The notes beneath the pieces are model-generated. The model was not told where the DNA came from, did no database searches, and saw only the letters and a list, made by a program, of their open reading frames with translations. From positions 328,130 through 392,129 of the forward strand of contig DJWO01000014.1 of assembly GCA_002441005.1 (NCBI GenBank): 64,000 nucleotides of DNA. Direction: 5' to 3'. Below, piece after piece: positions 1,410 to 27,086 of this stretch; position 1 is the first letter of the stretch, and the number at the start of each line of letters is the position of its first letter. This stretch comes from Candidatus Aminicenantes bacterium UBA6228 (GTDB lineage: Bacteria; Acidobacteriota; Aminicenantia; Aminicenantales; Saccharicenantaceae). The position numbers and the translations under genes were made by a program.

Positions 1410-3287
1410 TCAGGCTTTTTTCCGCTCAATTTTCATCTGCTTGAGATATGAGTCGTCTGGCCGGCCATCATCATTCCAGCCTCGAGCCCGGTAATAATCG
1501 CGGCGCATCTGGATCATATTCTCACGGCTGATAGCCCGGGGCTTGCCTTCTGACATTATCGGGATCTCCGAAAAGCGCAAAGGCAGCACGTCCTCTTCTT
1601 CCGGGTTGAGGCCAGCCTTGAGATTAAATAAGCGCTCGAGGGAGGCGATGCGGTTGGCTATTTCTTCGAGGTGAGCCGTCGAAAAATCATAGCCGGTAAT
1701 GCCACTGACAATTCTTGCCCAGGGTTCAATGGCGAAGGAAAAACCGGTGAAGCGGCAAACGCCGAGGCTATCCTGAAGAATGCCGGTATTCTGCATATTG
1801 CGAATGGCAATGGGTGATTGCAAAAGGCTAAAGCGGGGAATCTCTTTGGTGCCGCCAAAAAAGGCCAGCGAGACGGCATAACCGCCGCGAAGGTGACAGG
1901 CACCGGTGGGAGAAGTCATGTAGCCAAGGGCCTGGGCATAAGAGGCCCGCGGGTCATAACCCGGGATTTCCAGCTTTTTGACCTGCATGGCCAGCTCGGG
2001 ATGACCACAAGCAGCCGCCAGGCGGTAGGAACCCTCAGCCAGAAGGGAGCCAATACCTTGCCTATAGGCCGTAAGTTCGACCAGCTTTTCAAGGAGATCG
2101 CCACGGCCAAATCTAATTTCGAGGCCGTCAGTTTGCCTGGGAGTCAGATAGCCTTTCTCATAAAGCTCCATGGCGCAGGCCACTGTTCCGCCAAAAGTGA
2201 CCGTGTCGAGGCCGAGTTCGTTGGCCAGATAGTTAGCTTGAATGATGTAATCGAGGTCATAGATGTCGCAGACCGGGCCCATCAAAACGGTTGTCTCATA
2301 TTCGGGTCCTTCGCCCTGGTGGATCTGGCCGTCAGGCGTCTTGACTGCAGTGTGACGCTGGCAGCCAATCGGACAGAGATAACAGGAGCCTGCTTTTTCC
2401 AGATAGCCGCGGGCAATGGCCTCGCCAGAGATGCGCTCGACTTTATCCTCGTCATGGTTGACATCGAGAAAATTCCGGTGGGGCAACATGTTAATGACAT
2501 TGATAAGAAGAATGAGACCGGCCGTGCCCAGTTCGCGCATCAGCCTTTTGGTAATTGGGGCCTGCTTTAATAGATAAATGGCTTGGTCGACACCGGAGCG
2601 GTAACGGGCTTCATCGGCGATAGTGATTTTTTCGCGGCCACGGACACGAATCCCTTTGAGGTTTTTACTGCCGAAAACAGCGCCAGGGCCGCCGCGGCCA
2701 TAGACCCGGTTTTTATCGTTGGCGACAACAGCATATTTGACGAGATTTTCACCGGCCGGTCCGATGACCAGGGCGCGGTAGAGATTGCCGGGAGTGCTGC
2801 CGGCAGTCAGGATATCGGTTGACTCGGGGACATTTTTCCCCCAGAGATGAGACGCATCCAGGATTTCAATTTTTTCCGGGCTAAGGTCAATAAAAACAGG
2901 GTAGCTGGCCCGGCCGCGGATAATGAGGGCATCGTAACCGGTGGCTTTAAAAGTATGGCCCCAGGTTCCGCCAGAGTTTGAGGTGCCGATGTAACCAGTG
3001 AGAGGCGATTTATAGACCATATGACCACGGCCGGCAGTGGGGGCTTGCGAACCGACGAGCGGCGAGCTGGCGATGACAATGACATTATCGGGGCCGAGGG
3101 GATCGGTGGCGGGATCGATCCGGTCATAAAAAAGTTTGGTGGCCAGACCGCGGCCGCCGAGATAAAGAAGAACATCCTCAGAGGCCAGCGCTTCGATTTT
3201 GATCTGGCCGGTGGTCAGATCTATTTCCAGCACCCGGCCGTGGTATCCAGGAATGGCCATCTTCGTCTTACCTGCCTTACCTTCCAA
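1410..3287 (-). CDS. aor: Aldehyde:ferredoxin oxidoreductase (tungsten/molybdopterin-containing AOR family)
   Basis: 625-aa ORF. Its N-terminal domain (MAIPGYHGRVLEIDLTTGQIK...PLTGYIGTSNSGG) is typical of AOR. A Cys-rich [4Fe-4S] motif (GSCYLCPIGCQRH) and the C-terminal AOR domains are present. The true start may be the second Met (MAIPGY..., about 3260). Confidence 0.88.
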   Translation of the reverse strand: MEGKAGKTKMAIPGYHGRVLEIDLTTGQIKIEALASEDVLLYLGGRGLATKLFYDRIDPATDPLGPDNVIVIASSPLVGSQAPTAGRGHMVYKSPLTGYIGTSNSGGTWGHTFKATGYDALIIRGRASYPVFIDLSPEKIEILDASHLWGKNVPESTDILTAGSTPGNLYRALVIGPAGENLVKYAVVANDKNRVYGRGGPGAVFGSKNLKGIRVRGREKITIADEARYRSGVDQAIYLLKQAPITKRLMRELGTAGLILLINVINMLPHRNFLDVNHDEDKVERISGEAIARGYLEKAGSCYLCPIGCQRHTAVKTPDGQIHQGEGPEYETTVLMGPVCDIYDLDYIIQANYLANELGLDTVTFGGTVACAMELYEKGYLTPRQTDGLEIRFGRGDLLEKLVELTAYRQGIGSLLAEGSYRLAAACGHPELAMQVKKLEIPGYDPRASYAQALGYMTSPTGACHLRGGYAVSLAFFGGTKEIPRFSLLQSPIAIRNMQNTGILQDSLGVCRFTGFSFAIEPWARIVSGITGYDFSTAHLEEIANRIASLERLFNLKAGLNPEEEDVLPLRFSEIPIMSEGKPRAISRENMIQMRRDYYRARGWNDDGRPDDSYLKQMKIERKKA

Positions 3288-3315
3288 ATCTTAGCCCTTT
3301 AAAATATCAGAAACA

Positions 3316-3433
3316 GGGGACACAATCTATATTTCCTATTTTTTTATACAATAAGGGAGCTCGCAGGTAAACAAATAATGAGCCAGTGACCGGTCAAACG
3401 ATCAAATAATTAGGAAATATAGATTGTGTCCCC
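3316..3433. repeat. Pair of perfect 23-bp inverted repeats (GGGGACACAATCTATATTTCCTA at 3316-3338; its reverse complement at 3411-3433) flanking a 72-bp AT-rich segment
   Basis: Direct sequence comparison shows identical arms, and the flanks (aaacag / attt) are also conserved. The same arms recur at 6141-6163 and 6308-6330. The element sits 29 bp upstream of the AOR start codon and 17 bp downstream of the MoaD-like stop. Confidence 0.9.
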
Positions 3434-3450
3434 ATTTATAGAGGCCGGGT

Positions 3451-3735
3451 TTATCCACCGCCCATTAAGGGAAAGATGGTTACTGTCGCTCCATCCTCAA
3501 GCTTGAGCCCGGTCAGGGCATCATGGCTTACTATCGAGCCATTAATCATAATCACCAGATCTTCTCTCACCTGCCCATCTTTAAAGATCTCAGGCCTGGC
3601 CGCAGGTGTTTCTGCTAAGCGGTCAAGAAGTTCTATGAGACCTGGATTCTCATCAAAGACCAGTTCTTTTTCCTTAGCGCCAAATAACTCACGAAAGGGA
3701 GCATAAAACTTAACTTTAATTTTTATCGGTGGCAT
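3451..3735 (-). CDS. MoaD/ThiS-family sulfur-carrier protein
   Basis: 94 aa. It starts with MPPIKIKVKFYAPFRELFG and ends ...TVTIFPLMGGG, a beta-grasp protein with a C-terminal Gly-Gly. It lies next to the pterin-dependent AOR. Confidence 0.75.
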   Translation of the reverse strand: MPPIKIKVKFYAPFRELFGAKEKELVFDENPGLIELLDRLAETPAARPEIFKDGQVREDLVIMINGSIVSHDALTGLKLEDGATVTIFPLMGGG

Positions 3736-3875
3736 ATCCTGACTCCCGTTAACTTTACTTTTTTTTAACCTTACCGATCCACCAGACCCTATCTAATTTA
3801 TTATGCTCTAACCCCGGCTGGCACTGCAAGCAAAGATTACTAAGCTCAAGGGCAAAACTATGACGCTACCCACAC

Positions 3876-4673
3876 TTAGATAACTTTGGGATACATGACA
3901 GCCCCGATCAGAACCAGGATAATGGTGATGGCCGCCAGCACTCCCAGATCAAACCCAATTTGATAGGTGCCTGTTCCACCGACCAGCATCAATTGTCTCA
4001 GGATGTCAACTTCATAGGTCAAGGGATTAAGATGAGAAACGACTTGAAGCCAGGAAGGCATAATGGAAATCGGATAGATGGCGTTACTGGCAAAAAATAG
4101 CGGCATGGTTAAGACCTGTCCCAGGCCCATAAAGCGCTCCCTCGTTTTAACGATGCAGGCAATGATCAGGGAAAAGGTTGAAAAAAGAGCAGAACCAAGA
4201 ACAACGGCCAGAGCTACGCCAAGCAAAGACAGCAGATTGAAGTTCAAATGGACGCCGAGCAAAAGTGCGATGACGACGACAATCAGGCCCTGAGCCAGCC
4301 CTCTTACCCCAGCCGATAAGGCTTTTCCCAGTACCAGAGCCGCCCGCGGCGTTGGACTGACTAAAAACTTATGGACGACCCCCAGATCCTTTTCCCAGAT
4401 GATAGATATTCCATAGAAAATAGCGATGAACAAAACACTCTGAGCCAGAATGCCAGGCGTCATAAAATCAAGGTAAGGCAAATTCCCGGTAGGTATAGCC
4501 CTGACCCGGGTAAAGACCTGGCCGAAGACGAGCAACCACAGGGCAGGTTGAACCGCCCGGGTAAGAAGCTCGGTTGGATCGTGTCGCAGCTTTCTCATTT
4601 CCAGTTCAGCTAAAACTAAGGTTTTATTGCTGAAAGAATAGATTTGTTGGAATAATGATCTGAAAAACTTCAT
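3876..4673 (-). CDS. ABC-2 type transporter permease
   Basis: 265 aa with six predicted TM helices. It is translationally coupled downstream of the ABC ATPase. The topology is ABC-2 family. Confidence 0.7.
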   Translation of the reverse strand: MKFFRSLFQQIYSFSNKTLVLAELEMRKLRHDPTELLTRAVQPALWLLVFGQVFTRVRAIPTGNLPYLDFMTPGILAQSVLFIAIFYGISIIWEKDLGVVHKFLVSPTPRAALVLGKALSAGVRGLAQGLIVVVIALLLGVHLNFNLLSLLGVALAVVLGSALFSTFSLIIACIVKTRERFMGLGQVLTMPLFFASNAIYPISIMPSWLQVVSHLNPLTYEVDILRQLMLVGGTGTYQIGFDLGVLAAITIILVLIGAVMYPKVI

Positions 4674-4742
4674 GTTTTACTCCTGGACTACCGGGCTGCT
4701 ACACTCCTCGGCTCCTGGCTTCTATGATCCTGGCGGGTTTCC

Positions 4743-5543
4743 TCAACCTAAGCGCCGGGCGACGCGCCTCGTTCTGGATATATCTCGAAAGTTTCCGCCA
4801 TTATCCAGCTCGTTCCCGGTATAATGGATAAAAACATCATCAAGCGTCACTTCCTCACCCCGTCCGACTGCTGTTTTTAATTCCTGGGGAGAGCCCAGGG
4901 CAGCCATCTGTCCCAGGTGCATGATAGCTACGCGGCTACAAAGCTCATCTGCTTCATCCATGAGATGAGTGGTCAGAAAAATCGTCGTTCCAAACTGCTG
5001 ACGAAGATTTATGATGTGTTCCCAGACCGTACGCCTTGCCGCCGGGTCGAGCCCGATGGTTGGTTCATCCAGGAAAAGAACGCGCGGGTGGTGGAGCATT
5101 GACTGGGCAATTTCCAGCCGCCGTATCATGCCACCAGAATAGTGCCGAACAAGCTTATCAGCCACTTCCTCCAGACCCATGTAACGCAAAGCCTGTCTGA
5201 CCCGTTCTTCACGTTCCTGACGCGGAACATCATAGAGCCTGGCAAAAATCATTAAATTTTCATAACCGGTCAAAGTGCCGTCAGCCGAAATTAATTGTGG
5301 AACATAACCAATCATTTTTCTCACCCGGGCCGCCTGATGGCGAACGTCAAAACCAGCAACCATCGCCTGGCCAGACGTTGGCGGAAGCAGTGTGGTCAGT
5401 ATTTTTATGGTCGTTGTCTTACCGGCACCATTTGGACCCAGCAATCCAAAAATTTCACCCTCATCAATGGTAAGAGACAGGCGGTTGACAGCCAGGAGCT
5501 CGCCGAAGCGCCTGGTTAAATCTCTTGTTTCAATAATCTTCAT
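4743..5543 (-). CDS. ABC transporter ATP-binding protein
   Basis: Walker A (GPNGAGKTT), the ABC signature (YSGGMIRRLEIAQS) and Walker B (LFLDEPT) are all present. Confidence 0.92.
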   Translation of the reverse strand: MKIIETRDLTRRFGELLAVNRLSLTIDEGEIFGLLGPNGAGKTTTIKILTTLLPPTSGQAMVAGFDVRHQAARVRKMIGYVPQLISADGTLTGYENLMIFARLYDVPRQEREERVRQALRYMGLEEVADKLVRHYSGGMIRRLEIAQSMLHHPRVLFLDEPTIGLDPAARRTVWEHIINLRQQFGTTIFLTTHLMDEADELCSRVAIMHLGQMAALGSPQELKTAVGRGEEVTLDDVFIHYTGNELDNGGNFRDISRTRRVARRLG

Positions 5544-6037
5544 AGCAGTCGTCCTTTTGGTCTCGAATCTCGTTTTTCTTTATGGGATCGATCAGAGGTC
5601 TTCGGAAAGACCAGAGCCTCGAGCAGTAACTCGAAACCCTCATCAATCTTCTGGATTTCTATCGGAGGCAAGTAGTCGAGATGCTCTTGAAGGTTTTTGA
5701 GCGTCGCTTTTTCAGCCAAGGTCAACAGTTTCATGCCCTGGTGGCTCAAATGAAGCTCAATCTGCCGCCTGTCTTCCAGGCCCGATTCCCTGACTATCAA
5801 ACCGCGTCTGACCAGATTATCAACCATTCGGGAAGCCGTGGCCAGGGATAATCCATGGTGAGCAGCCAGAGCTGAGAGCGAGGCCCGCGAGTGGCGACGG
5901 CAAAAAAGAAGTGTGCGAAACTGAGCCAGAGACAGATCTGGCTGGCGGTACTGCCTCATGTTCGACCGGATATAGCCCATCAGTCTGGGTATTCCTTCCA
6001 TAAGCCTGACTGCCAATTCTTCAATCTTATCATCCAT
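5540..6037 (-). CDS. MarR-family transcriptional regulator
   Basis: 165 aa with a winged-helix core (LSLAQFRTLLFCRRH...SLSALAAHHGLSLATASRMVDNLVRRGLIVR). It is the first gene of the marR-ABC-ABC operon and overlaps the ATPase start by 4 bp. Confidence 0.8.
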   Translation of the reverse strand: MDDKIEELAVRLMEGIPRLMGYIRSNMRQYRQPDLSLAQFRTLLFCRRHSRASLSALAAHHGLSLATASRMVDNLVRRGLIVRESGLEDRRQIELHLSHQGMKLLTLAEKATLKNLQEHLDYLPPIEIQKIDEGFELLLEALVFPKTSDRSHKEKRDSRPKGRLL

Positions 6038-6079
6038 TTTATTAGCCTATCTAATTATTAGCTTTTCTAACTATTTTTA

Positions 6080-6108
6080 AGCATAGTCCTGGTCTTGACC
6101 TTTGTCAA
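6080..6108 (-). promoter_or_regulatory. Putative sigma-70 promoter of the marR operon, with an overlapping palindrome TTGACctttGTCAA
   Basis: On the minus strand: TTGACA (complement of 6103-6108), a 17-bp spacer, then TATGCT (complement of 6080-6085). The palindrome TTGAC-N4-GTCAA at 6095-6108 overlaps the -35 box and could be the MarR operator. Confidence 0.45.
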
Positions 6109-6140
6109 CGGCAGAGCAAAAAACCGCCCTTATTTAAACA

Positions 6141-6330
6141 GGGGACACAATCTATATTTCCTAATTATTTTCCTCTTTGAGTAAGGAGGGGAGGACTGCT
6201 AATTGAGTCAGTAAGGGGACGTGGTAAGGGGCCGTTCCTAACCGGCACTTAATTCGACCATATGACCCGGCTCGCCAGGCACAAAATCATTTAGAGGACC
6301 AAGAAAATAGGAAATATAGATTGTGTCCCC
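6141..6330. repeat. Second copy of the 23-bp inverted-repeat pair (arms 6141-6163 and 6308-6330) flanking a 144-bp segment
   Basis: The arms are identical to those at 3316-3433, including the aaacag / attt flanks. The inner sequence is unrelated to that of locus 1. The right arm ends 3 bp before the pilQ stop codon (6334-6336). Confidence 0.9.
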
Positions 6331-6333
6331 ATT

Positions 6334-8502
6334 TTAACGGGCGATGACCAGCATTTCGCCACCCACCAGGTTGACAGCCCGGCCCTGCACTCCGAGGACC
6401 TGAATTGAGGAGATGCCTACTCTGGTCTCGCCTGCCCCCAGGACTTCAAAAACCAGCGTGGCCAGATTGCCGCTATTTACACCTTTAGCCGGATCCGGTG
6501 ACGAAAAGCCTATTACGGCCAGCCCCGAAGAAGCACTTATATCCTGGAGAAAAGAGCCTTTATCACCAAACTGGCTGACCAGGTCCCCTCTCTGAATTTC
6601 TTTAAGTCTCAACACTTTAGAGTCGTAATTAACATTCAGAGACAAAGACGTTATATCCACTGGCGAATTGACGGCTAATCTGACATTTAATGTATAGCCC
6701 ACCGGCACTTCCGACCGCTCGGGTAACAGCGACACTGTTCCCATCTGGGCACCAGCTTCGGCCGCCTCCTCTGCCGGGACTTCCACTCCGGCTTCAACTG
6801 GAGGTATGGTTTCTTCACCGCCGCCAGCAGCCGTCTGCGTTTGCGTCGTAAAGCTTGAGCCGGCATTATCGATCCACAGCGGCTCACTGTCTTCAGCCTT
6901 TAAAGGCATTGTCCTGATAATATGCGGAGTTATGGTCAGGATCACATCAGTCTGGTCAACTGTCCGGTCAGCACTCGAAAAAAGGCTGCCCAGAATAGGG
7001 ATATTTTTCAGGCCAGTCACTCCCTTCAGAGATTTCCGCTCCTCATCCTTGAGTAACCCGGCCAGTAAATTGGTTTCGCCATCCTTGAGTCTGATCACAT
7101 TCTTGACCGACCGGGTAGAAATAATGGGAATATCGGCGATTCCCGTACCACTGATGGCTGTGATTTTGACTTCCATTTCCAGACTGACTTCATTTTCCTG
7201 ATGCAACCTTGGTTTGATATTCACTCCAATGCCAACATCCTGATACTGATAGGAAACCATTGGCTGCTGGCTGATACCGCCGGCAGCAATTGGATTAAAG
7301 GTTGTACTTGGAATTGGTACTTGCTGACCAACCAGATAATTTATTTCCTCGCTGTCAACTCCCCTCAGCCTTGGCTGGGCGATAATTTTTGTATCCGAAT
7401 CAGTCTCTATAAACTGAAGAAGAACCGAAGGCAGGGTTATCTGAAAATTTTCTGATTTGGAAAGATCAAAACCCTCGAGAGGCAGCCAGCCGTCGGTTGG
7501 GATTTCGCTCACCCCACCCGTATATCTGATGGACCCATAGCTCTGGCTGAACTGCGTGCCGATAGTTTGCAGTCTTGTTCTGGAGACTTCCATGATCTCC
7601 AGATCGATAATTACCTCGCCCTTAGGCTTATCCCAGGACTGAAGCAGTTTCTCGGCCAGGGCCACGACCGTTGCCGTGTCTCTGATGGTCAGCGAATTTC
7701 TTGTTTTGTCAACAATAATGCTGGGGCCTTTATACTGAGTCCGCAGGATAGAAGCCAGCTGATTTTGCACGTCCTGGGCATTTATGTTAGAGAGGTAGAT
7801 AGTTTTAATGGCATTGACTTCATATTGATTTCGTTTTTGCGGGTTGTCAGGAATGATGATCGCCGTTCGCTCATCCATCACCCGGTAGAAAGTCCGCCCG
7901 GTCAGGCAGAGTGAGTTAATAGCCTGTTCGACAGTTAGATCAGTCAGATCAATCGAAACAGGCAGATCACGGAACTGCTCGTCAAACAAAAAGTTGATCC
8001 CGCTGAACTTTCCCAGAGCCTGGAAAATCGCCCGCAAAGAAGCATCGGTAAATTTCAGTTTCAGTAATTCGGGCGGGTATTTTAATTTTACTGGAGCTTC
8101 AATCACCACTTCTTTGGGCTTGACTTCAACGGCTGGCTTGATACCGGCCAATTCTTTATACTCAGCCAGAATCATCCTGTTGGTTGGATCATAAAACAGG
8201 GCCTTTTTATATTGATTAAGAGCCTCATCTTTCATTCCTCCCGCCGCCAGGCGCCTGGCCCTTTCAGCCGCATCCAGCGCTGCCACGGCCTTCGTCCGGA
8301 AGAGAGCCAGCCGGTAAACTGACTCTTTAGGATTTTCCAGCATCGCCTGCTCATAGTATTTAATGGCCTCATCATAATTCTTATTGATCTCGGCCTGATA
8401 ACCGAGCTTATAGGACTGGGTAAAAGTAGAACAACCAAGTATATTTATGATTAAGAAGCCAAGAAAAAGCCAGCTGATTTTTCCCGGTCTGATTTTAGTC
8501 AT
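6334..8502 (-). CDS. pilQ: Type IV pilus secretin PilQ (type II/III secretion secretin family) with an N-terminal lipobox-TPR module and a C-terminal cohesin-like domain
   Basis: 722 aa. A lipoprotein signal (LGCS) and TPR-like helices come first. Secretin N-domains and the secretin core follow (...GVTGLKNIPILGSLFS...ILTITPHII). A Gly/Ala/Glu-rich linker then leads to a roughly 135-aa C-terminal beta-sandwich (LSLNVNYDSKVLRL...GNLATLVFEVLGAGETRVGI) that resembles cohesin domains. Confidence 0.8.
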   Translation of the reverse strand: MTKIRPGKISWLFLGFLIINILGCSTFTQSYKLGYQAEINKNYDEAIKYYEQAMLENPKESVYRLALFRTKAVAALDAAERARRLAAGGMKDEALNQYKKALFYDPTNRMILAEYKELAGIKPAVEVKPKEVVIEAPVKLKYPPELLKLKFTDASLRAIFQALGKFSGINFLFDEQFRDLPVSIDLTDLTVEQAINSLCLTGRTFYRVMDERTAIIIPDNPQKRNQYEVNAIKTIYLSNINAQDVQNQLASILRTQYKGPSIIVDKTRNSLTIRDTATVVALAEKLLQSWDKPKGEVIIDLEIMEVSRTRLQTIGTQFSQSYGSIRYTGGVSEIPTDGWLPLEGFDLSKSENFQITLPSVLLQFIETDSDTKIIAQPRLRGVDSEEINYLVGQQVPIPSTTFNPIAAGGISQQPMVSYQYQDVGIGVNIKPRLHQENEVSLEMEVKITAISGTGIADIPIISTRSVKNVIRLKDGETNLLAGLLKDEERKSLKGVTGLKNIPILGSLFSSADRTVDQTDVILTITPHIIRTMPLKAEDSEPLWIDNAGSSFTTQTQTAAGGGEETIPPVEAGVEVPAEEAAEAGAQMGTVSLLPERSEVPVGYTLNVRLAVNSPVDITSLSLNVNYDSKVLRLKEIQRGDLVSQFGDKGSFLQDISASSGLAVIGFSSPDPAKGVNSGNLATLVFEVLGAGETRVGISSIQVLGVQGRAVNLVGGEMLVIAR

Positions 8503-14174: not shown

Positions 14175-14210
14175 GTTGACAAATGTCATAAATTGTATTA
14201 TGTTGTCAAC
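14175..14210 (+). promoter_or_regulatory. Promoter/operator of the XRE-family gene: -35 TTGACA (14176-14181) and -10 TATGTT/TATTAT, bracketed by the inverted repeat GTTGACAA (14175-14182) ... TTGTCAAC (14203-14210)
   Basis: Read directly from the sequence. The RBS AGGAAG lies 6 nt before the ATG at 14239. Confidence 0.55.
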
Positions 14211-14238
14211 CAGAAGAGGGTCTTAAAAGGAAGCATGT

Positions 14239-15507
14239 ATGGGAACATCTAACGACAGATCAAAGGTGGATGCGACCTTCCCGTTAAGGTTGAGAGCAGC
14301 CCGTTTGAAGGCCGGCCTTAGTCTCGAGGACCTGGCCTGCAAGCTCGGGGGAATAGTCAGCCGCCAGGCCATTGCCAAGTATGAAAAGGGCCTGGCCGCC
14401 CCATCTCCCGAAGTCCTTGAACACCTCCTCCAGGTCCTCGAGATCCCGGCTCCACCTGAAGAGGTCACTTCTTTAAGTTGTTTCACAGATAATTTTAGAG
14501 CTCGAAATGTTTCTTATAAAAGAAAAAGTAATACTGCCAGGCAAGACCTCAACTTGAAAAAAACCGGGGCTGACAACCAGCTAGCTGAAGACAAAAAGCT
14601 GGAGTGGTTGGAACCGACTCGGGTTTATTTTTGCCTCAATAGACAGGACCTTCAGCCGGCCAACATTCAAAAGGATAAGGAAAAAGAATCATTTATCTTC
14701 CGCTGCGGTTTGAAGCTTAGCTCGAAACAACTTACTGCCCTGAGAGTCCAGATCGCAGAAAAGATGGAAAAATATCTCCGTCTTGAATCGCTGCTTAAGG
14801 CAGAACTTAAGTTCACGGTTGGATTGAGCAATTCTTCCCTTGCCAACCCTGACCAAACTGAACAGGCTGCCGGGGAATTACGCCAGCTCTGGGATCTGGG
14901 AACTGGCCCGGTAGTCAATATTCTAACTTTTCTTGAAGACCGGGGAATAAAAATTTTTAGGTTAGCCGGTCCGGAAGGTTTTGAAAGCTGTTCTGGATTC
15001 TATCTTGACTCACCTTTTATTGCCGTCAATGACAACCTGCCGGTTGACCGGCTAAGATTTAAAACCTCAACTGAGCTGGCTCAGATTTTATTTGGTTTCT
15101 CTGAAGATCCAGCGCAGTCGAAACTCTATAACCGCTGGGCGGCGGCTTTTTTAATGCCGGCCAGGAAGCTCGAAGAATATTTTTTGCCGGCTGGCCGGAA
15201 AATTGCCCTGAGTGAGCTGGCCGAAATAAAATTGCGCTATGGAATTTCTTTGCAGGCCATCATGTACCGGGCTTATGATCTTGGCCTGATAACCGAGCGG
15301 CGGTTAAGAGCCTTTAGAGAATTGCTCAATCAAAAAGGCTGGCTGACTAAAGAACCAGTGGCTTACCGGGGCGAAGAGTTCCCTCAGCGGTTTAAAAGAC
15401 TGATTCATTATGCTATCTCCTCAGAAATTCTTGACCTTAAAACAGCCGCTTCTTTGGCCGAAACTACGCCGGAAGATTTGTGCCAGGAGATTGGAGACAT
15501 TTTTTAA
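14239..15507 (+). CDS. XRE-family HTH protein fused to a degenerate ImmA/IrrE-type (M78-like) metallopeptidase domain that lacks the HExxH motif
   Basis: The N-terminus is a classic HTH_XRE (LRAARLKAGLSLEDLACKLGGIVSRQAIAKYEKG). The C-terminal region has ImmA/IrrE-family hallmarks (YNRWAAAFLMPARKLEEYF; LAEIKLRYGISLQAIMYRAYDLGLI). At the position of the family's Zn-binding HExxH the sequence is STELAQ (...RLRFKTSTELAQILFG...), so both catalytic His residues are absent. Confidence 0.65.
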   Translation: MGTSNDRSKVDATFPLRLRAARLKAGLSLEDLACKLGGIVSRQAIAKYEKGLAAPSPEVLEHLLQVLEIPAPPEEVTSLSCFTDNFRARNVSYKRKSNTARQDLNLKKTGADNQLAEDKKLEWLEPTRVYFCLNRQDLQPANIQKDKEKESFIFRCGLKLSSKQLTALRVQIAEKMEKYLRLESLLKAELKFTVGLSNSSLANPDQTEQAAGELRQLWDLGTGPVVNILTFLEDRGIKIFRLAGPEGFESCSGFYLDSPFIAVNDNLPVDRLRFKTSTELAQILFGFSEDPAQSKLYNRWAAAFLMPARKLEEYFLPAGRKIALSELAEIKLRYGISLQAIMYRAYDLGLITERRLRAFRELLNQKGWLTKEPVAYRGEEFPQRFKRLIHYAISSEILDLKTAASLAETTPEDLCQEIGDIF

Positions 15508-15657
15508 CCGGGCCGGGGCCCTGATTACCCTGGCTGTCAGGTTAGAGGGGAGTTGATGATGGGTTTTATTTTGAACATTCCGCCTTAGCGAAAGAGACAG
15601 GAACAGGGGAAATTGACTTAATTTATCAGGTCTTTTTTTGGAAAGAAGGAGTCTATT

Positions 15658-16734
15658 ATGCCAAAACTTATTGATTCTTATCTTTTAGAAATGGAAATTG
15701 GCCAGCCCCAGACAGCTGGAGAGATAGCCGTTTTTCCACTTAAATCCAGCCGGAATCCTGGTCCTGAGTATATAACTTTAGCCGAGGCCCTGGCCAGCGG
15801 CCAATTAACGGTCACCGAGGTCAGCCACGGTGGATCTGTCCCGGAGTTAAAAGCGGTAAATCAAGGGGGAAAAGCGGTGCTGATGCTGGATGGCGAGGAA
15901 CTGGTTGGGGCCAAACAAAACCGGGTCCTGAATACTACTATCTGGGTGGCGCCAGGAACCAGCCTGGTTATTCCGGTTAGCTGCGTGGAAAGAAACCGCT
16001 GGTCCGGTCTTCATCATCCCGTAGAGAAATCAGACAATGTGATGGTTCATTCCATGCGGCTTAAAAAAGTTCAAAGTGTCAATAAGAACTTAGAAAAAAA
16101 GGCCGGCTTTAAAAGCGATCAGTCTGAAGTCTGGCGGGAACTGGATAGGGCTTGTTACTTACTTAACGTGGATTCACCCACCGCTGCCATGAGAGATATT
16201 TATGAAAGGCGGAAGACTGAACTAGAAAACTACTTAAAGGCTTTCAGGCCCGTTCCCGGCCAGCAAGGCTTGCTGGTTTTTTGGGCTGGAAAACCTCTGG
16301 GCTGTGATTTCATTTCCAGAGAAGAAGCCCTGGCCAGTTTGTTTCAAAAGCTGCTTAAAAGCTACCTGCTCGAAGTCATAATGGTCAGTCAGGATAGAGG
16401 AACCGGAGACCAGGAAGGTAAAAGCCAGAAAGTTAAGGGTCCAGCCAGACAGAAACCAACTGTTCCTGGAATAAAAAAAGCCAGAAACTTCCTGTCCAAA
16501 GCGGCTCAAGCCGAAGAGAAAAGATATAAAGCTACCGGTTCAGGTCAAGCCTGCCGCTATTGCCATCAGGATTTAGCCGGGGCTTCGCTGGAAATAGACA
16601 ATTTTATTCCCCATTTTGTTTTTTTAGCCACCGAAAAAGGTTCGCGGTTCAGAAATTACCGGAATAGAGAAAATTTCTCCGGATTAAGGGACAGGAAAGC
16701 CTTCCTTTCCAGAAGTGGAGATGACCTTAAATAA
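15658..16734 (+). CDS. Uncharacterised protein with an N-terminal conserved domain that I recall as ARPP-1-like (domain of unknown function) and a C-terminal CxxC region
   Basis: 358 aa with a strong RBS (AAGGAG). The N-terminal roughly 115 aa (AVFPL...ITLAEALASGQLTVTEVSHGGSVPELKAVNQGGKAVLMLDGEELVGAKQNRVLNTTIW...VIPVSCVERNRW) carry the signature I associate with the ARPP-1-like family, written here from memory and not database-checked. The C-terminus contains GQACRYCHQD. No signal peptide is seen. Confidence 0.5.
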   Translation: MPKLIDSYLLEMEIGQPQTAGEIAVFPLKSSRNPGPEYITLAEALASGQLTVTEVSHGGSVPELKAVNQGGKAVLMLDGEELVGAKQNRVLNTTIWVAPGTSLVIPVSCVERNRWSGLHHPVEKSDNVMVHSMRLKKVQSVNKNLEKKAGFKSDQSEVWRELDRACYLLNVDSPTAAMRDIYERRKTELENYLKAFRPVPGQQGLLVFWAGKPLGCDFISREEALASLFQKLLKSYLLEVIMVSQDRGTGDQEGKSQKVKGPARQKPTVPGIKKARNFLSKAAQAEEKRYKATGSGQACRYCHQDLAGASLEIDNFIPHFVFLATEKGSRFRNYRNRENFSGLRDRKAFLSRSGDDLK

Positions 16735-17099: not shown

Positions 17100-17405
17100 A
17101 TGAAGGGAAGAAGGCTAAAGGTCACTTCAATTGTGGTTATAGGGTTGCTTTTTATGTTATCAGCCTGGTTAGTTTTTGGCCAGGAGGTGGAAAAACAAGA
17201 AAAGTCAAGCGTGCCGTCCCAAACCACACCCCCCCAAACCCCGCCCCAGGAGGTTCAAAAACCAAAACTTGACTATATGAGCACTTTTTTGTCACGTGAC
17301 ACTACACCTCTTGGCTTGAAGGAAGACCAGGAGATCCGCCAGCTTTTGAAGCAGTCGCGTTCAAAATGGATGGTAAGAGCCGGGGTAAGAAATATCCTGA
17401 ACTAA
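17100..17405 (+). CDS. Small secreted Pro/Thr/Gln-rich protein (hypothetical)
   Basis: 101 aa with a signal peptide/TM helix (IVVIGLLFMLSAWLVFG) and a low-complexity TTPPQTPPQE stretch. A promoter-like TTGACA-17-TATTTA lies at 17062-17090. Confidence 0.4.
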   Translation: MKGRRLKVTSIVVIGLLFMLSAWLVFGQEVEKQEKSSVPSQTTPPQTPPQEVQKPKLDYMSTFLSRDTTPLGLKEDQEIRQLLKQSRSKWMVRAGVRNILN

Positions 17406-25585: not shown

Positions 25586-25613
25586 TTGACAAACGTCATT
25601 TTTTATCTAAAAT
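25586..25613 (+). promoter_or_regulatory. Putative sigma-70 promoter of glnA (TTGACA-16-TAAAAT)
   Basis: Read directly from the sequence. The extended -35 (TAGTTGACAAAYGTCAT) is nearly identical to the one at 14173-14189. Confidence 0.5.
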
Positions 25614-25688: not shown

Positions 25689-27086
25689 ATGACAGAAAAA
25701 CAAGTTGAGCTCTACGGGCTAACATCTGAACAGGAAGTGCTGGAGGTGATAAATAATCCGGCTCTGAAGATAGAATTTGTCAGAATCATGTTTCCCGACA
25801 TTCTTGGCCGGCCAATGGATTTTTCCATACCCAGCTCTGAATTAGAGCGGGCTTTTTCAGAGGGAAAAGGCTTTGATGGCTCTTCCGTCGAAGGTTTTGT
25901 CCGGATTGAAGAAAGTGACCTGGTCATCGTGCCAGAAGCCAGAACCTTCCGTCTTTTCCCCTGGACATATAGTGGTTTTGACGGTCAGACCAGCTGGAGA
26001 GAAGCCATTATGTTCGGAGATATTTACACACCGGACCATAACCATTATGCCGGGGACAGCCGGTTCAGTCTCAAGAAGATGCTGGCTAAAGCCAGAGAGG
26101 AATTTGGCTTTGAAGATTTTAAATGCGGGCCCGAAATGGAATTTTTTATTTTCCCTGATGATCAGCAGCCTGTCCCAACTGATGCCGGTGAGTATTTCTT
26201 TGCAGGCCGCCACGGCGAGATCAGAAAGGAGATCCAGCTTCTCCTCAAAAAAATGGGCATTGAATCAGAATATGACCACCATGAAGTTGCCCATGGGCAA
26301 CACGAAATTGACCTTCGTTATGATAGCGCCCTGGATATAGCCGATAAAGTCATGATTTTCCGCTATATGGCCAAAAAAGTGGCCAGAATGCACAATCTTT
26401 ACGCCACTTTCATGCCTAAACCAGTCAATGGCCAGAATGGAAGCGGGATGCATATCCATCAATCCCTGTGGCGAAATGGACATAATGCTTTCTTTGATCA
26501 GGACTCAAAATATCATCTCTCAGCTGAAGCCCAGCATTATATTGCAGGTATTATGTTTCATGCCCGGGAAATCTGCCCGGTTTTCAGCCAGTGGGTCAAC
26601 TCCTATAAAAGACTGATTGAGGGCTACGAAGCGCCGGTTTATATAGCCTGGGGGCAGAAGAACCGGTCAGCCTATATTCGGGTGCCTGAATATCAACCGG
26701 GAAAAGAAAAAGCGACCAGAATTGAACTCCGCTCCCCTGACCCCGGTTGTAATGTCTATCTGGCCATGGCGATGATGCTGGCCGCCGGCCTGGATGGCCT
26801 CAAAAATCAAATCCAGCTGCCTTTACCGGTAGAAGAAAACATTTACCAGTTGAGTGCCAGCAAACAGAAGAAAGCAGGTATCCAGGTCCTGCCCAGAAAT
26901 TTACAGGAAGGCCTGAAGCTGGTTGAAAAAAGCCAGCTGGTCAAGGAAACCCTGGGTGAGCATATTTTTGAGAAATTCCTGGCTAATAAGCAGAAGGAAA
27001 TTGATGACTATCAAAAGAACGTTCCAGAAGGATATGACCGGCAAGTCAGCCCTTACGAAATAAAAAGATATCTGCCAATGCTCTGA
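25689..27086 (+). CDS. glnA: Glutamine synthetase, type I
   Basis: 465 aa with GS beta-grasp and catalytic domains. A motif of the form ...MHIHQSLW... is present. Confidence 0.88.
   Translation: MTEKQVELYGLTSEQEVLEVINNPALKIEFVRIMFPDILGRPMDFSIPSSELERAFSEGKGFDGSSVEGFVRIEESDLVIVPEARTFRLFPWTYSGFDGQTSWREAIMFGDIYTPDHNHYAGDSRFSLKKMLAKAREEFGFEDFKCGPEMEFFIFPDDQQPVPTDAGEYFFAGRHGEIRKEIQLLLKKMGIESEYDHHEVAHGQHEIDLRYDSALDIADKVMIFRYMAKKVARMHNLYATFMPKPVNGQNGSGMHIHQSLWRNGHNAFFDQDSKYHLSAEAQHYIAGIMFHAREICPVFSQWVNSYKRLIEGYEAPVYIAWGQKNRSAYIRVPEYQPGKEKATRIELRSPDPGCNVYLAMAMMLAAGLDGLKNQIQLPLPVEENIYQLSASKQKKAGIQVLPRNLQEGLKLVEKSQLVKETLGEHIFEKFLANKQKEIDDYQKNVPEGYDRQVSPYEIKRYLPML

Follow-up and report, generated by a model that had tools for sequence, protein, structure and literature searches.

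A 64,000-nt stretch of Candidatus Aminicenantes bacterium UBA6228 (contig DJWO01000014.1, positions 328,130 to 392,129; hereafter the window) encodes a two-gene cassette in which a regulator combining an XRE-type helix-turn-helix (HTH) with an M78 (ImmA/IrrE-like) fold, gene A, lies directly upstream of a protein of the ARPP-1 family, gene B. The linkage between XRE-M78 and ARPP-1 genes is conserved among the relatives of the window and recurs in a second phylum in another arrangement. The cassette has an operator-like repeat over its promoter and, between its two genes, a leader micro-open reading frame (micro-ORF) that is conserved across relatives. Judging from these sequence features, we consider it somewhat more probable than otherwise that the cassette is a self-contained, doubly gated regulator-payload unit that would release ARPP-1 upon stress or infection. 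Its features are the following:

14175..14210, forward strand: promoter, sigma-70-like (TTGACA-17-TATGTT), with an operator-like inverted repeat
14226..14233, forward strand: Shine-Dalgarno sequence (SD) of gene A, aaaggaag, 5 nt before the ATG, read from the sequence
14239..15507, forward strand: gene A, 422 aa, XRE-HTH/M78-fold regulator of the RmrA/COG2856-Xre type (ORF, Pfam and PADLOC)
14290..14448, forward strand: XRE-type HTH DNA-binding domain of gene A, aa 18-70 (Pfam HTH_3, E = 1e-12)
14449..14688, forward strand: variable linker of gene A, aa 71-150, predicted to be disordered (low predicted local distance difference test score, pLDDT; unalignable)
14935..15273, forward strand: M78/ImmA-IrrE-like domain of gene A, aa 233-345, followed by a C-terminal helical domain to aa 422
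15070..15084, forward strand: degenerate metal site of gene A, T278-E-L-A-Q282, which replaces HExxH; both His ligands lost, Glu kept
15545..15588, forward strand: leader micro-ORF, with SD gaggggag at 15545-15552, ATG at 15556, TAG at 15588 and the peptide MMGFILNIPP before the stop
15615..15632, forward strand: weak hairpin gactt...aggtc, about -2 kcal/mol, with a T7 run at 15633-15639, just 5' of the SD of gene B
15646..15651, forward strand: SD of gene B, aaggag, 6 nt before the ATG, read from the sequence
15658..16734, forward strand: gene B, 358 aa, ARPP-1 family protein (ORF and Pfam PF20208)
15889..16002, forward strand: invariant ARPP-1 core of gene B, D78-G-E-E..G-A-K-Q87-N-R..N-T-T and P106-V-S-C109-V-E..R-W115 (alignment)

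A pattern-based scan with one genome per species returned at least 593 ARPP-1 loci, and the analysis was carried out on the 80 most similar of them. In the ARPP-1 subclade nearest to the window (37-87% identity to gene B), an orthologue of gene A was present in 24 of 24 genome loci, directly upstream of gene B, co-directional with it and 116-373 nt away (150 nt in the window). These loci represent species-level Aminicenantota-type genomes, and the pair was also found on further metagenome contigs. Judged by its nearest relatives, the window itself comes from a Candidatus Saccharicenans-like member of the Aminicenantota. Contig look-ups showed that at least four unrelated flanks carry the pair: pilus and kinase genes, as in the window; phage capsid and portal genes on one side with a glycosyltransferase on the other; SelB-like and SSF transporter genes with RecR a few kb away; and Tricorn protease, Fer4_5 and TldD genes. 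When the search started from gene A, its close homologues led to the same cassette, and the identities of A and B drop in parallel across loci.

Beyond this subclade, three Actinomycetota/Thermoleophilia metagenome-assembled genomes (MAGs) contain a divergent XRE-M78 gene directly upstream of ARPP-1:

L077: XRE-M78 at 2011-5760, reverse strand; ARPP-1 at 5866-7062, forward strand
L079: XRE-M78 at 1559-3067, reverse strand; ARPP-1 at 2873-4327, forward strand
L080: XRE-M78 at 2439-4100, reverse strand; ARPP-1 at 4293-5501, forward strand

The metal motif of these regulators is HEFAH in two cases and HAFAH, with the catalytic Glu lost, in one; L077 and L080 have conserved blocks in common in the intergenic region shared by the two genes. 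The first phmmer census had missed these neighbours, which were detected by a Pfam scan of neighbouring genes and a profile search, so the co-occurrence figures are lower bounds. An earlier note on this DNA, made from the letters alone, had proposed a two-gene XRE-HTH/pseudo-M78 plus ARPP-1 module with an operator-like promoter of its own, and the module is genuine: homologues of A and B occur together in 24 of the 80 loci, in four contexts, and in the three Actinomycetota MAGs.

The other 53 sampled loci encode ARPP-1 without gene A. Among the 56 loci outside the subclade, 16 contain a WYL-WCX regulator and 14 an ADP-ribosylglycohydrolase (ARG); for 12 of the 16, the distance between the WYL gene and ARPP-1 is at most about 510 nt (10 are directly upstream), and for the rest it is 0.6-4 kb. 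Most sampled ARPP-1 loci have no antitoxin-like neighbour. Elsewhere, ARPP-1 is fused to ARG, Macro, DSP-phosphatase, receiver-MORN and aspartyl-protease domains, and its partners also include nucleases. The ARG, Macro and DSP-phosphatase fusions match the ADP-ribose context described for this family (PMC9503650), whose WYL and ARG neighbourhoods and ARG/Macro/phosphatase fusions were recovered independently here. No ARG was found in the gene-A-containing loci examined. The alternation of XRE-M78 and WYL regulators beside ARPP-1 recalls that of CapH/CapP and CapW at CBASS operons and supports a view of these regulators as interchangeable alarm modules.

More distant relatives of gene A have other partners. 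P0375 (30% identity) and P0377 (29%) are tightly paired, at gaps of -11 to +15 nt, with a gene for a DUF3368 protein and one for a PemK toxin; DUF3368 is included in a classification of PIN-like domains (PMC5499597), and the RmrA/COG2856-Xre family is known to pair with many unrelated toxins and effectors (PMC2701414; NetFlax/Rosmer, PMC10440598). Within the paired loci, the cassette of L007 (1-5858; CP054675.1, a 2.4-Mb record) adjoins genes for a portal, an S78 protease-capsid fusion and Amidase_2, with no terminase between them, and these phage-like neighbours may be a prophage remnant. In some genomes of a sister clade, a gene for a PIF1-type helicase-WYL fusion lies a few kb from the cassette (L090/L091, 1-1625; L093, 1-736), and in L090/L091 it is adjoined by a HicB antitoxin gene.

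By profile and by predicted fold, gene A is a member of the COG2856-Xre/RmrA class. Matches above the Pfam cut-offs to HTH_3 and Peptidase_M78 (E = 6.2e-10; 39.4 bits against a cut-off of 22) bear out the fusion of an XRE HTH to an ImmA/IrrE-type domain that the earlier note had described. Fourteen PADLOC models of RmrA, the Rosmer antitoxin, match aa 152-397 with a best E of 6.8e-40, the match covering the profiles over nearly their full length, and phrog_2439, a phage family of transcriptional regulators, matches gene A from end to end. The NCBIfam model of the spr1629 repressor/antitoxin (NF052239) gave E = 7e-21 and 74.7 bits, far below its cut-off of 335. In the AlphaFold model (pLDDT 76), the HTH and the C-terminal two-thirds are folded, and aa 70-150 have a pLDDT below 50 and vary in length among homologues; fold matches were obtained to CapP, IrrE/PprI, DdrO and PrpR.

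In alignments, the Saccharicenans-type orthologues, including that of the window, have (T/A/S)-E-L-A-(Q/H) at the HExxH position, and HELGH or HELAH is retained in a sister Aminicenantota clade and in distant relatives of the toxin-antitoxin (TA) type. The dead protease of the earlier note is therefore correct for the window, which has TELAQ, but not as a general trait, since only the Saccharicenans lineage has lost the site and the sister clade keeps HELGH. Because both His residues of HExxH are lost, zinc binding by gene A of the window is unlikely; as for the third zinc ligand, no single downstream Glu could be fixed from the alignment.

Gene B matches the Pfam family PF20208 (ARPP-1) over aa 12-321 (15691-16620; E = 1.5e-85; 287.6 bits against a cut-off of 27), which covers positions 2-295 of the 297 in the profile, and its AlphaFold2 model has a pLDDT of 84 and a predicted template modelling score of 0.83. 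The fold criterion for the family is a core in which a four-stranded beta-meander is duplicated, with an inserted beta-barrel that bears the conserved residues. ARPP-1 occurs in bacteria and archaea, with 6747 representatives in a library clustered at 50% identity (E up to 1e-3). Residues C109, Q87, N88, R89, E111, R114 and W115 are invariant in 22 aligned sequences, and all are present in gene B. ARPP, the ARG- and rhodanese-phosphatase-associated protein, was named and defined computationally in 2022 (Iyer, Burroughs, Anantharaman and Aravind; PMC9503650), with an invariant Cys and Gln as the family signature. That study predicts an enzyme acting on the ribose moieties of ADP-ribose, possibly via SRAP-like covalent chemistry, and describes ARPP both in ARG-centred systems and in two-gene pairs whose other member is HIRAN, a WYL transcription factor or a deacetylase. 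Among the searchable open-access texts and preprints, no other paper defining ARPP was found, and there is no solved structural relative of ARPP-1. No DNA-binding or repair domain was detectable in gene B.

All the motif strings quoted in the earlier note are present in gene B, and its placement of the protein outside the characterised enzyme families agrees with the profile search, which gives ARPP-1, a family whose function is only predicted. The CxxC region that it singled out is lineage-specific noise: C300-R-Y-C303 is not conserved, and most homologues have S-Y-R-Y-A there. A zinc-ribbon-like end of gene B was accordingly rejected, as neither Cys is conserved and the tail (aa 328-358) is variable and predicted to be disordered.

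The palindromic promoter/operator noted earlier upstream of gene A is real. A perfect 8-nt inverted repeat, with arms GTTGACAA (14175-14182) and TTGTCAAC (14203-14210), overlaps the promoter, whose -35 element TTGACA lies at 14176-14181 and whose -10 element TATGTT lies at 14199-14204; an inner 5-2-5 palindrome, TGACAAATGTCA, is found at 14177-14188. Within the 64 kb, TTGACA-N18-24-TGTCAA has a single match, where 0.01 would be expected. At the same position, TTGACAA-N19-21-TTGTCAA, with at most 2 mismatches in the arms, is present in 30 of 30 related loci, that is, in all those with upstream DNA, and the sequence of its spacer drifts. A wider regulon of gene A was considered and rejected within the window: the full repeat is unique there even when 2 mismatches are allowed, which gives no sign of a local regulon, and matches to the half-motif are at chance level. 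Two sites resemble the left half of the cassette operator: TTGACAAACGTCA at 25586-25598, in the promoter region of a gene for glutamine synthetase (25689-27086), and TTGACAAAGGTCA at 6096-6108, in that of a MarR-family gene (5540-6037). Since the count is at chance level, this half-motif probably represents an extended -35 context that is generic in this organism.

The spacer between the two genes contains the leader micro-ORF, which the earlier note had overlooked. An equivalent is present in 25 of 27 distinct A-B spacers, the only cassettes without it being L007 and L051; the observation refers to 15545-15588 of the window and the A-B spacers of L001-L027, L034, L042 and L087. In the Saccharicenans clade, the micro-ORF has 10-14 codons and reads MMG...(K/N/R)-I-P-P-stop, with MMG..KIPP-stop in the relatives of the window. 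Its length varies by multiples of three, with 9-nt indels leaving the frame intact. For the stop and the four codons before it, the columns that vary in this clade number 0, 1 and 5 at codon positions 1, 2 and 3, respectively, with the variants ATT/ATA/ATC, CCG/CCA/CCT, CCT/CCG/CCA and TAG/TAA. The micro-ORF of the sister clade always has 10 codons (MMGRFExGxx-stop) and lacks Pro-Pro; its Gly3 uses 3 different codons and its Gly8 uses 4, all of the variation there being synonymous. In the DNA alignment of the spacer, the SD-ATGATGGG and ATTCCGCCTTAG blocks stand out as conserved islands. This coding-type pattern of substitutions across relatives is strong comparative evidence that the micro-ORF is translated and that the ends of the peptide are constrained. 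A C-terminal Pro-Pro before the stop is a slow-termination context, and leaders of 6-20 codons gate erm, cat, tnaA and ARE-ABCF genes.

The hairpin and T7 run that follow the leader in the window are a possible attenuator or terminator, much weaker than those of its relatives. In the GC-rich sister clade, 8 of 13 loci satisfied a strict criterion for a long, strong GC-rich hairpin followed by a T-run: the 5' end of the hairpin falls between -12 and +5 nt relative to the micro-ORF stop, and 33-38 nt separate the T-run from the start of ARPP-1. Inside these hairpins the sequence is not conserved, and the stem bases change in a compensatory manner (CCTTAGCG/CGCTAAGG in L025; CTAGCTGCGG/CCGCAGCTGG in L087). 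RNAalifold predicted no pairs for the post-leader hairpin because the variable interiors misalign, and the hairpins were judged from per-locus folds. A search of the spacer for Rfam families returned none, only a sub-threshold DUF3085 match on the opposite strand (E = 0.99).

We also considered the leader end as an anti-SD that masks the ribosome-binding site (RBS) of gene B. This was rejected as a general feature, since the pairing was no better than in shuffled sequences in 10 clade members, including the window; the exceptions were L014, with 8 perfect pairs (ATACCTCC/GGAGGTAT), and L016. In L014 (5867-5994), the Ile-Pro-Pro codons ATA CCT CCA are complementary over 8 nt to the ARPP-1 SD region GGAGGTAT, and both paired segments differ from the clade consensus, so that this leader may be a lineage-specific SD-masking version.

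Other elements of the spacer were observed upstream of the micro-ORF. A GC-rich hairpin directly follows the stop of gene A in the window (15508-15545) and in the first 20-25 nt of the spacers of L010, L012, L013, L014 and L034. The sequences differ and the stem is the same (for example GCCGGGG..CUCCGGC, CCGGGU..GCCCGG and UUCCGGG..CCCGGGA), with no T-run after it; it may serve in processing or stability or act as a partial terminator. In L015, such a hairpin was seen by eye only, and the computed fold pairs a different segment. An A-rich (poly-purine) insertion of ~200 nt separates the gene A stop from the micro-ORF in L004 (5629-5870) and L011 (4024-4260).

Taken together, these elements suggest how the cassette could work. 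Gene A would be a dimer-type XRE repressor that binds the inverted repeat over its own -35 and -10 elements and keeps the A-leader-B transcript low, as suggested by its domain family and the conserved operator-like repeat. Its M78-fold domain would be the signal-receiving part, potentially as an active Zn-peptidase in the sister lineages. In the Saccharicenans lineage, where both His ligands are gone, the domain would have to act without catalysis, possibly by binding a ligand or a partner protein or as the target of another factor. A second gate would be provided by the 10-codon leader ending in Ile-Pro-Pro-stop and the hairpin and T-run before the gene B RBS, where the dwell time of the ribosome at the leader end would decide whether gene B is made. 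Attenuation of this kind is a reasonable, if unproven, mechanism, and the case for it is weakest in the window itself. The payload, ARPP-1 with an intact Cys/Gln core, is predicted to be an enzyme acting on ADP-ribose-type or other sugar-containing substrates, and would be released only on a signal of stress or infection; this putative function is suggested by the fusions and neighbourhoods of ARPP-1 elsewhere.

The RmrA-type regulator, its alternation with WYL regulators and the ADP-ribose-linked fusions all argue for a payload used in conflict or stress. A simple stoichiometric TA pair is made less likely by the length of the regulated spacer, by the divergent layout in Actinomycetota and by the many ARPP-1 genes that lack any antitoxin-like neighbour; a typical shuffled defence island is made less likely by the conservation of the flanks across the Saccharicenans-type loci examined and by the lack of defence or mobile genes nearby. 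A more far-reaching version of the doubly gated unit, which we put forward tentatively and judge unlikely, is that of a guarded effector module of a kind not recognised so far, in which an RmrA-type regulator would have ARPP-1 as its toxic or immune payload and would allow its release only when two independent alarms coincide, namely inactivation of the XRE-M78 repressor and ribosome stalling on the Pro-Pro-stop leader, which would thereby serve as a sensor of translation state. If true, this would give a first functional handle on ARPP-1 and would reveal M78 pseudo-proteases as non-catalytic sensors in such modules.

Several observations weigh against a doubly gated payload released on stress or infection. 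The association with mobile elements or defence islands suggested by the earlier note was not borne out, no such context being found in the window, and the Saccharicenans-type loci examined share the same cassette flanks; given both points, a housekeeping stress response fits at least as well as an immune system. Gene B has no match in PADLOC (E up to 1) or PHROGs, and a pattern scan confirmed no relatives of it in IMG/VR; a phage origin of gene B was rejected on the PHROGs and IMG/VR results. Because the repeat has the -35 hexamer as its left arm and a right arm that abuts the -10 element, its conservation is not fully separable from that of the promoter, and the shorter motif TTGACAAAnGTCA is also present at two unrelated promoters in the window (glnA and marR), at chance frequency. 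Within the spacer of the window, the post-leader hairpin reaches only about -2 kcal/mol, and the full sequence is no more stably folded than its shuffled versions (z = +0.63); among 12 clade members, only 2 show significant pairing between the leader end and the SD of gene B.

Of the other explanations, the one that survives best, though we find it rather unlikely, is a type II TA system resembling Rosmer, in which ARPP-1 would be a toxin (a new RmrT type) and gene A would both neutralise it by binding and repress the operon, with activation through loss or sequestration of gene A, for example during phage infection. Such a role is in line with the 14 RmrA models of PADLOC that gene A matches, with its below-cut-off match to the spr1629 model (E = 7e-21), with the DUF3368 and PemK toxins paired with its distant relatives and with the many unrelated toxins to which RmrA-type antitoxins are linked (PMC10440598; RipAB; PMC2701414). 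Keeping a dead M78 domain would also be sensible if the domain were a toxin-binding surface. However, classical TA pairs are tightly coupled or overlapping, whereas a gap of 116-373 nt with a leader ORF and hairpins separates the genes here, and the divergent genes of Actinomycetota are atypical for the stoichiometric coupling of TA systems. Gene B matches neither RmrT nor any other PADLOC model, and the fact that most sampled ARPP-1 loci lack an antitoxin-like neighbour argues against intrinsic toxicity. The Saccharicenans-type loci examined, moreover, keep the same flanks instead of being patchy.

The shared flanks could also belong to a housekeeping unit for LexA-independent responses to DNA damage or oxidative stress, with a logic like that of IrrE/DdrO or PafBC/DriD; we regard this as distinctly unlikely. 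ARPP-1 would then be a repair or lesion-shielding factor whose conserved Cys acts, like SRAP, on sugar moieties of damaged nucleic acid. The WYL class PafBC/DriD runs SOS-independent damage responses, and both regulator types found beside ARPP-1, XRE-M78 and WYL, are damage-response classes. For XRE-M78, PMC6868357 describes IrrE/DdrO in such responses, and the fold neighbours of gene A include IrrE/PprI and DdrO. The chromosomal position and flanks of the cassette are kept across the Saccharicenans-type loci examined, with no mobile or defence context, and the pairing of ARPP with HIRAN, which binds DNA 3' ends, and the SRAP analogy (PMC9503650) point in the same direction. This is offset by gene B itself, which has no detectable DNA-binding or repair domain, by the ARG, Macro and phosphatase fusions, which point to ADP-ribose and not to DNA, and by the presence of the operator only at the cassette promoter within the 64 kb, with no sign of a regulon.

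Very improbable is the control of an ordinary metabolic enzyme by a metabolite-sensing factor of the PrpR/RamB type, built from an XRE-HTH and a non-proteolytic M78-like ligand domain: the sister-clade orthologues in the same cassette have an intact HExxH, none of the four flanks provides a metabolic gene context, and the partners of ARPP-1 elsewhere are WYL regulators, ARG, Macro and nucleases. Chance adjacency of two unrelated genes behind a generic strong promoter, to which the consensus hexamer in the -35 arm and the recurrence of TTGACAAAnGTCA at the glnA and marR promoters would be suited, is hardly credible and is effectively refuted by the neighbourhood census, in which the pairing is kept down to 37% identity, in four flanks and in a second phylum, with the identities of A and B falling in parallel.

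The cassette is the simplest genetic setting of ARPP-1 found, consisting of a putative repressor, an operator, a leader and a payload without accessory enzymes, and it offers a tractable experimental entry to what ARPP-1 does and when it is made. Otherwise orthologous cassettes with intact and dead M78 domains provide a natural comparison, which bears on how XRE-M78 regulators (Rosmer, CapH/CapP and IrrE-type) sense their signals.

In its surroundings, the pair runs divergently from a type IV pilus PilC/PilB-type pair; 3' of gene B there is a 101-aa ORF, followed by genes for a histidine kinase with PDZ and PAS domains and for a sigma-54 response regulator; the Pfam labels given here to the pilus and kinase flanks are those of an orthologous locus. 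The earlier note had located the two ORFs correctly, between a pilus machine and a two-component system and divergent from the pilus genes, and the RBS it claimed for each is present (14226-14233 and 15646-15651). The 101-aa ORF (17100-17405) has a hydrophobic N-terminus, a Pro/Gln-rich stretch and no Pfam match. In 8 Saccharicenans-type loci it is kept 3' of the cassette and 5' of the histidine kinase, and it probably belongs with the two-component system and not with the cassette. Elsewhere in the 64-kb window we found no ARG or WYL gene, no second copy of A or B and no second XRE or M78 gene, and the window has no Macro or phosphatase gene near the cassette.

Among known systems, the closest class for gene A comprises Rosmer (RmrT/RmrA), including the pneumococcal RipAB (spr1630/spr1629), and the COG2856-Xre fusions (Makarova et al. 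2009). As in these, gene A combines in one chain an XRE HTH at the N-terminus and an ImmA/M78-type domain at the C-terminus, and is encoded beside a variable partner. Unlike in Rosmer, the partner is ARPP-1, which matches neither RmrT nor PADLOC models, and the genes are split by a leader micro-ORF instead of being translationally coupled; the loss of the zinc site in the window sets gene A apart from both Rosmer and COG2856-Xre. In CapH/CapP (with CapW as the alternative WYL regulator, CBASS), ImmR/ImmA (ICEBs1) and DdrO/IrrE (Deinococcus), a separate repressor is cleaved by an active protease. Gene A, by contrast, has both domains in one polypeptide, with a protease site that in this lineage is dead. 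No cleavage event can be inferred. PrpR/RamB differ in that the cassette has no metabolic operon context and its sister orthologues are HExxH-positive.

For the leader, the comparison is with short leader-peptide attenuators such as the ermC and cat leaders, tnaC and the ARE-ABCF leaders. The cassette resembles them in having an ORF of 10-14 codons with its own SD directly 5' of gene B and a Pro-Pro-stop end, and in the hairpin or T-run at or near the leader stop in many of its relatives. It differs from them in that no alternative-structure switch is demonstrable, the structure in the window is weak and the sister-clade peptide lacks Pro-Pro.

Both protein families are already known, and the cassette is not a categorically new system. 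The earlier note had called it previously undescribed, which does not hold for its parts (RmrA/COG2856-Xre, and ARPP since 2022). As for their combination, the pairing of XRE-M78 with ARPP-1 and the leader micro-ORF are absent from PMC9503650, the one paper defining ARPP among the searchable open-access texts and preprints, in which no ImmA, M78 or IrrE term occurs and XRE appears only in the title of a reference. Unlike the ARG-centred systems of that study, the cassette has no ARG in the 64-kb window and no phosphatase nearby, and unlike its two-gene pairs, it has an XRE-M78 regulator and a leader micro-ORF. With those pairs, WYL-ARPP in particular, it shares an ARPP-1 protein with the invariant Cys/Gln core and a two-gene layout with a dedicated transcription factor.

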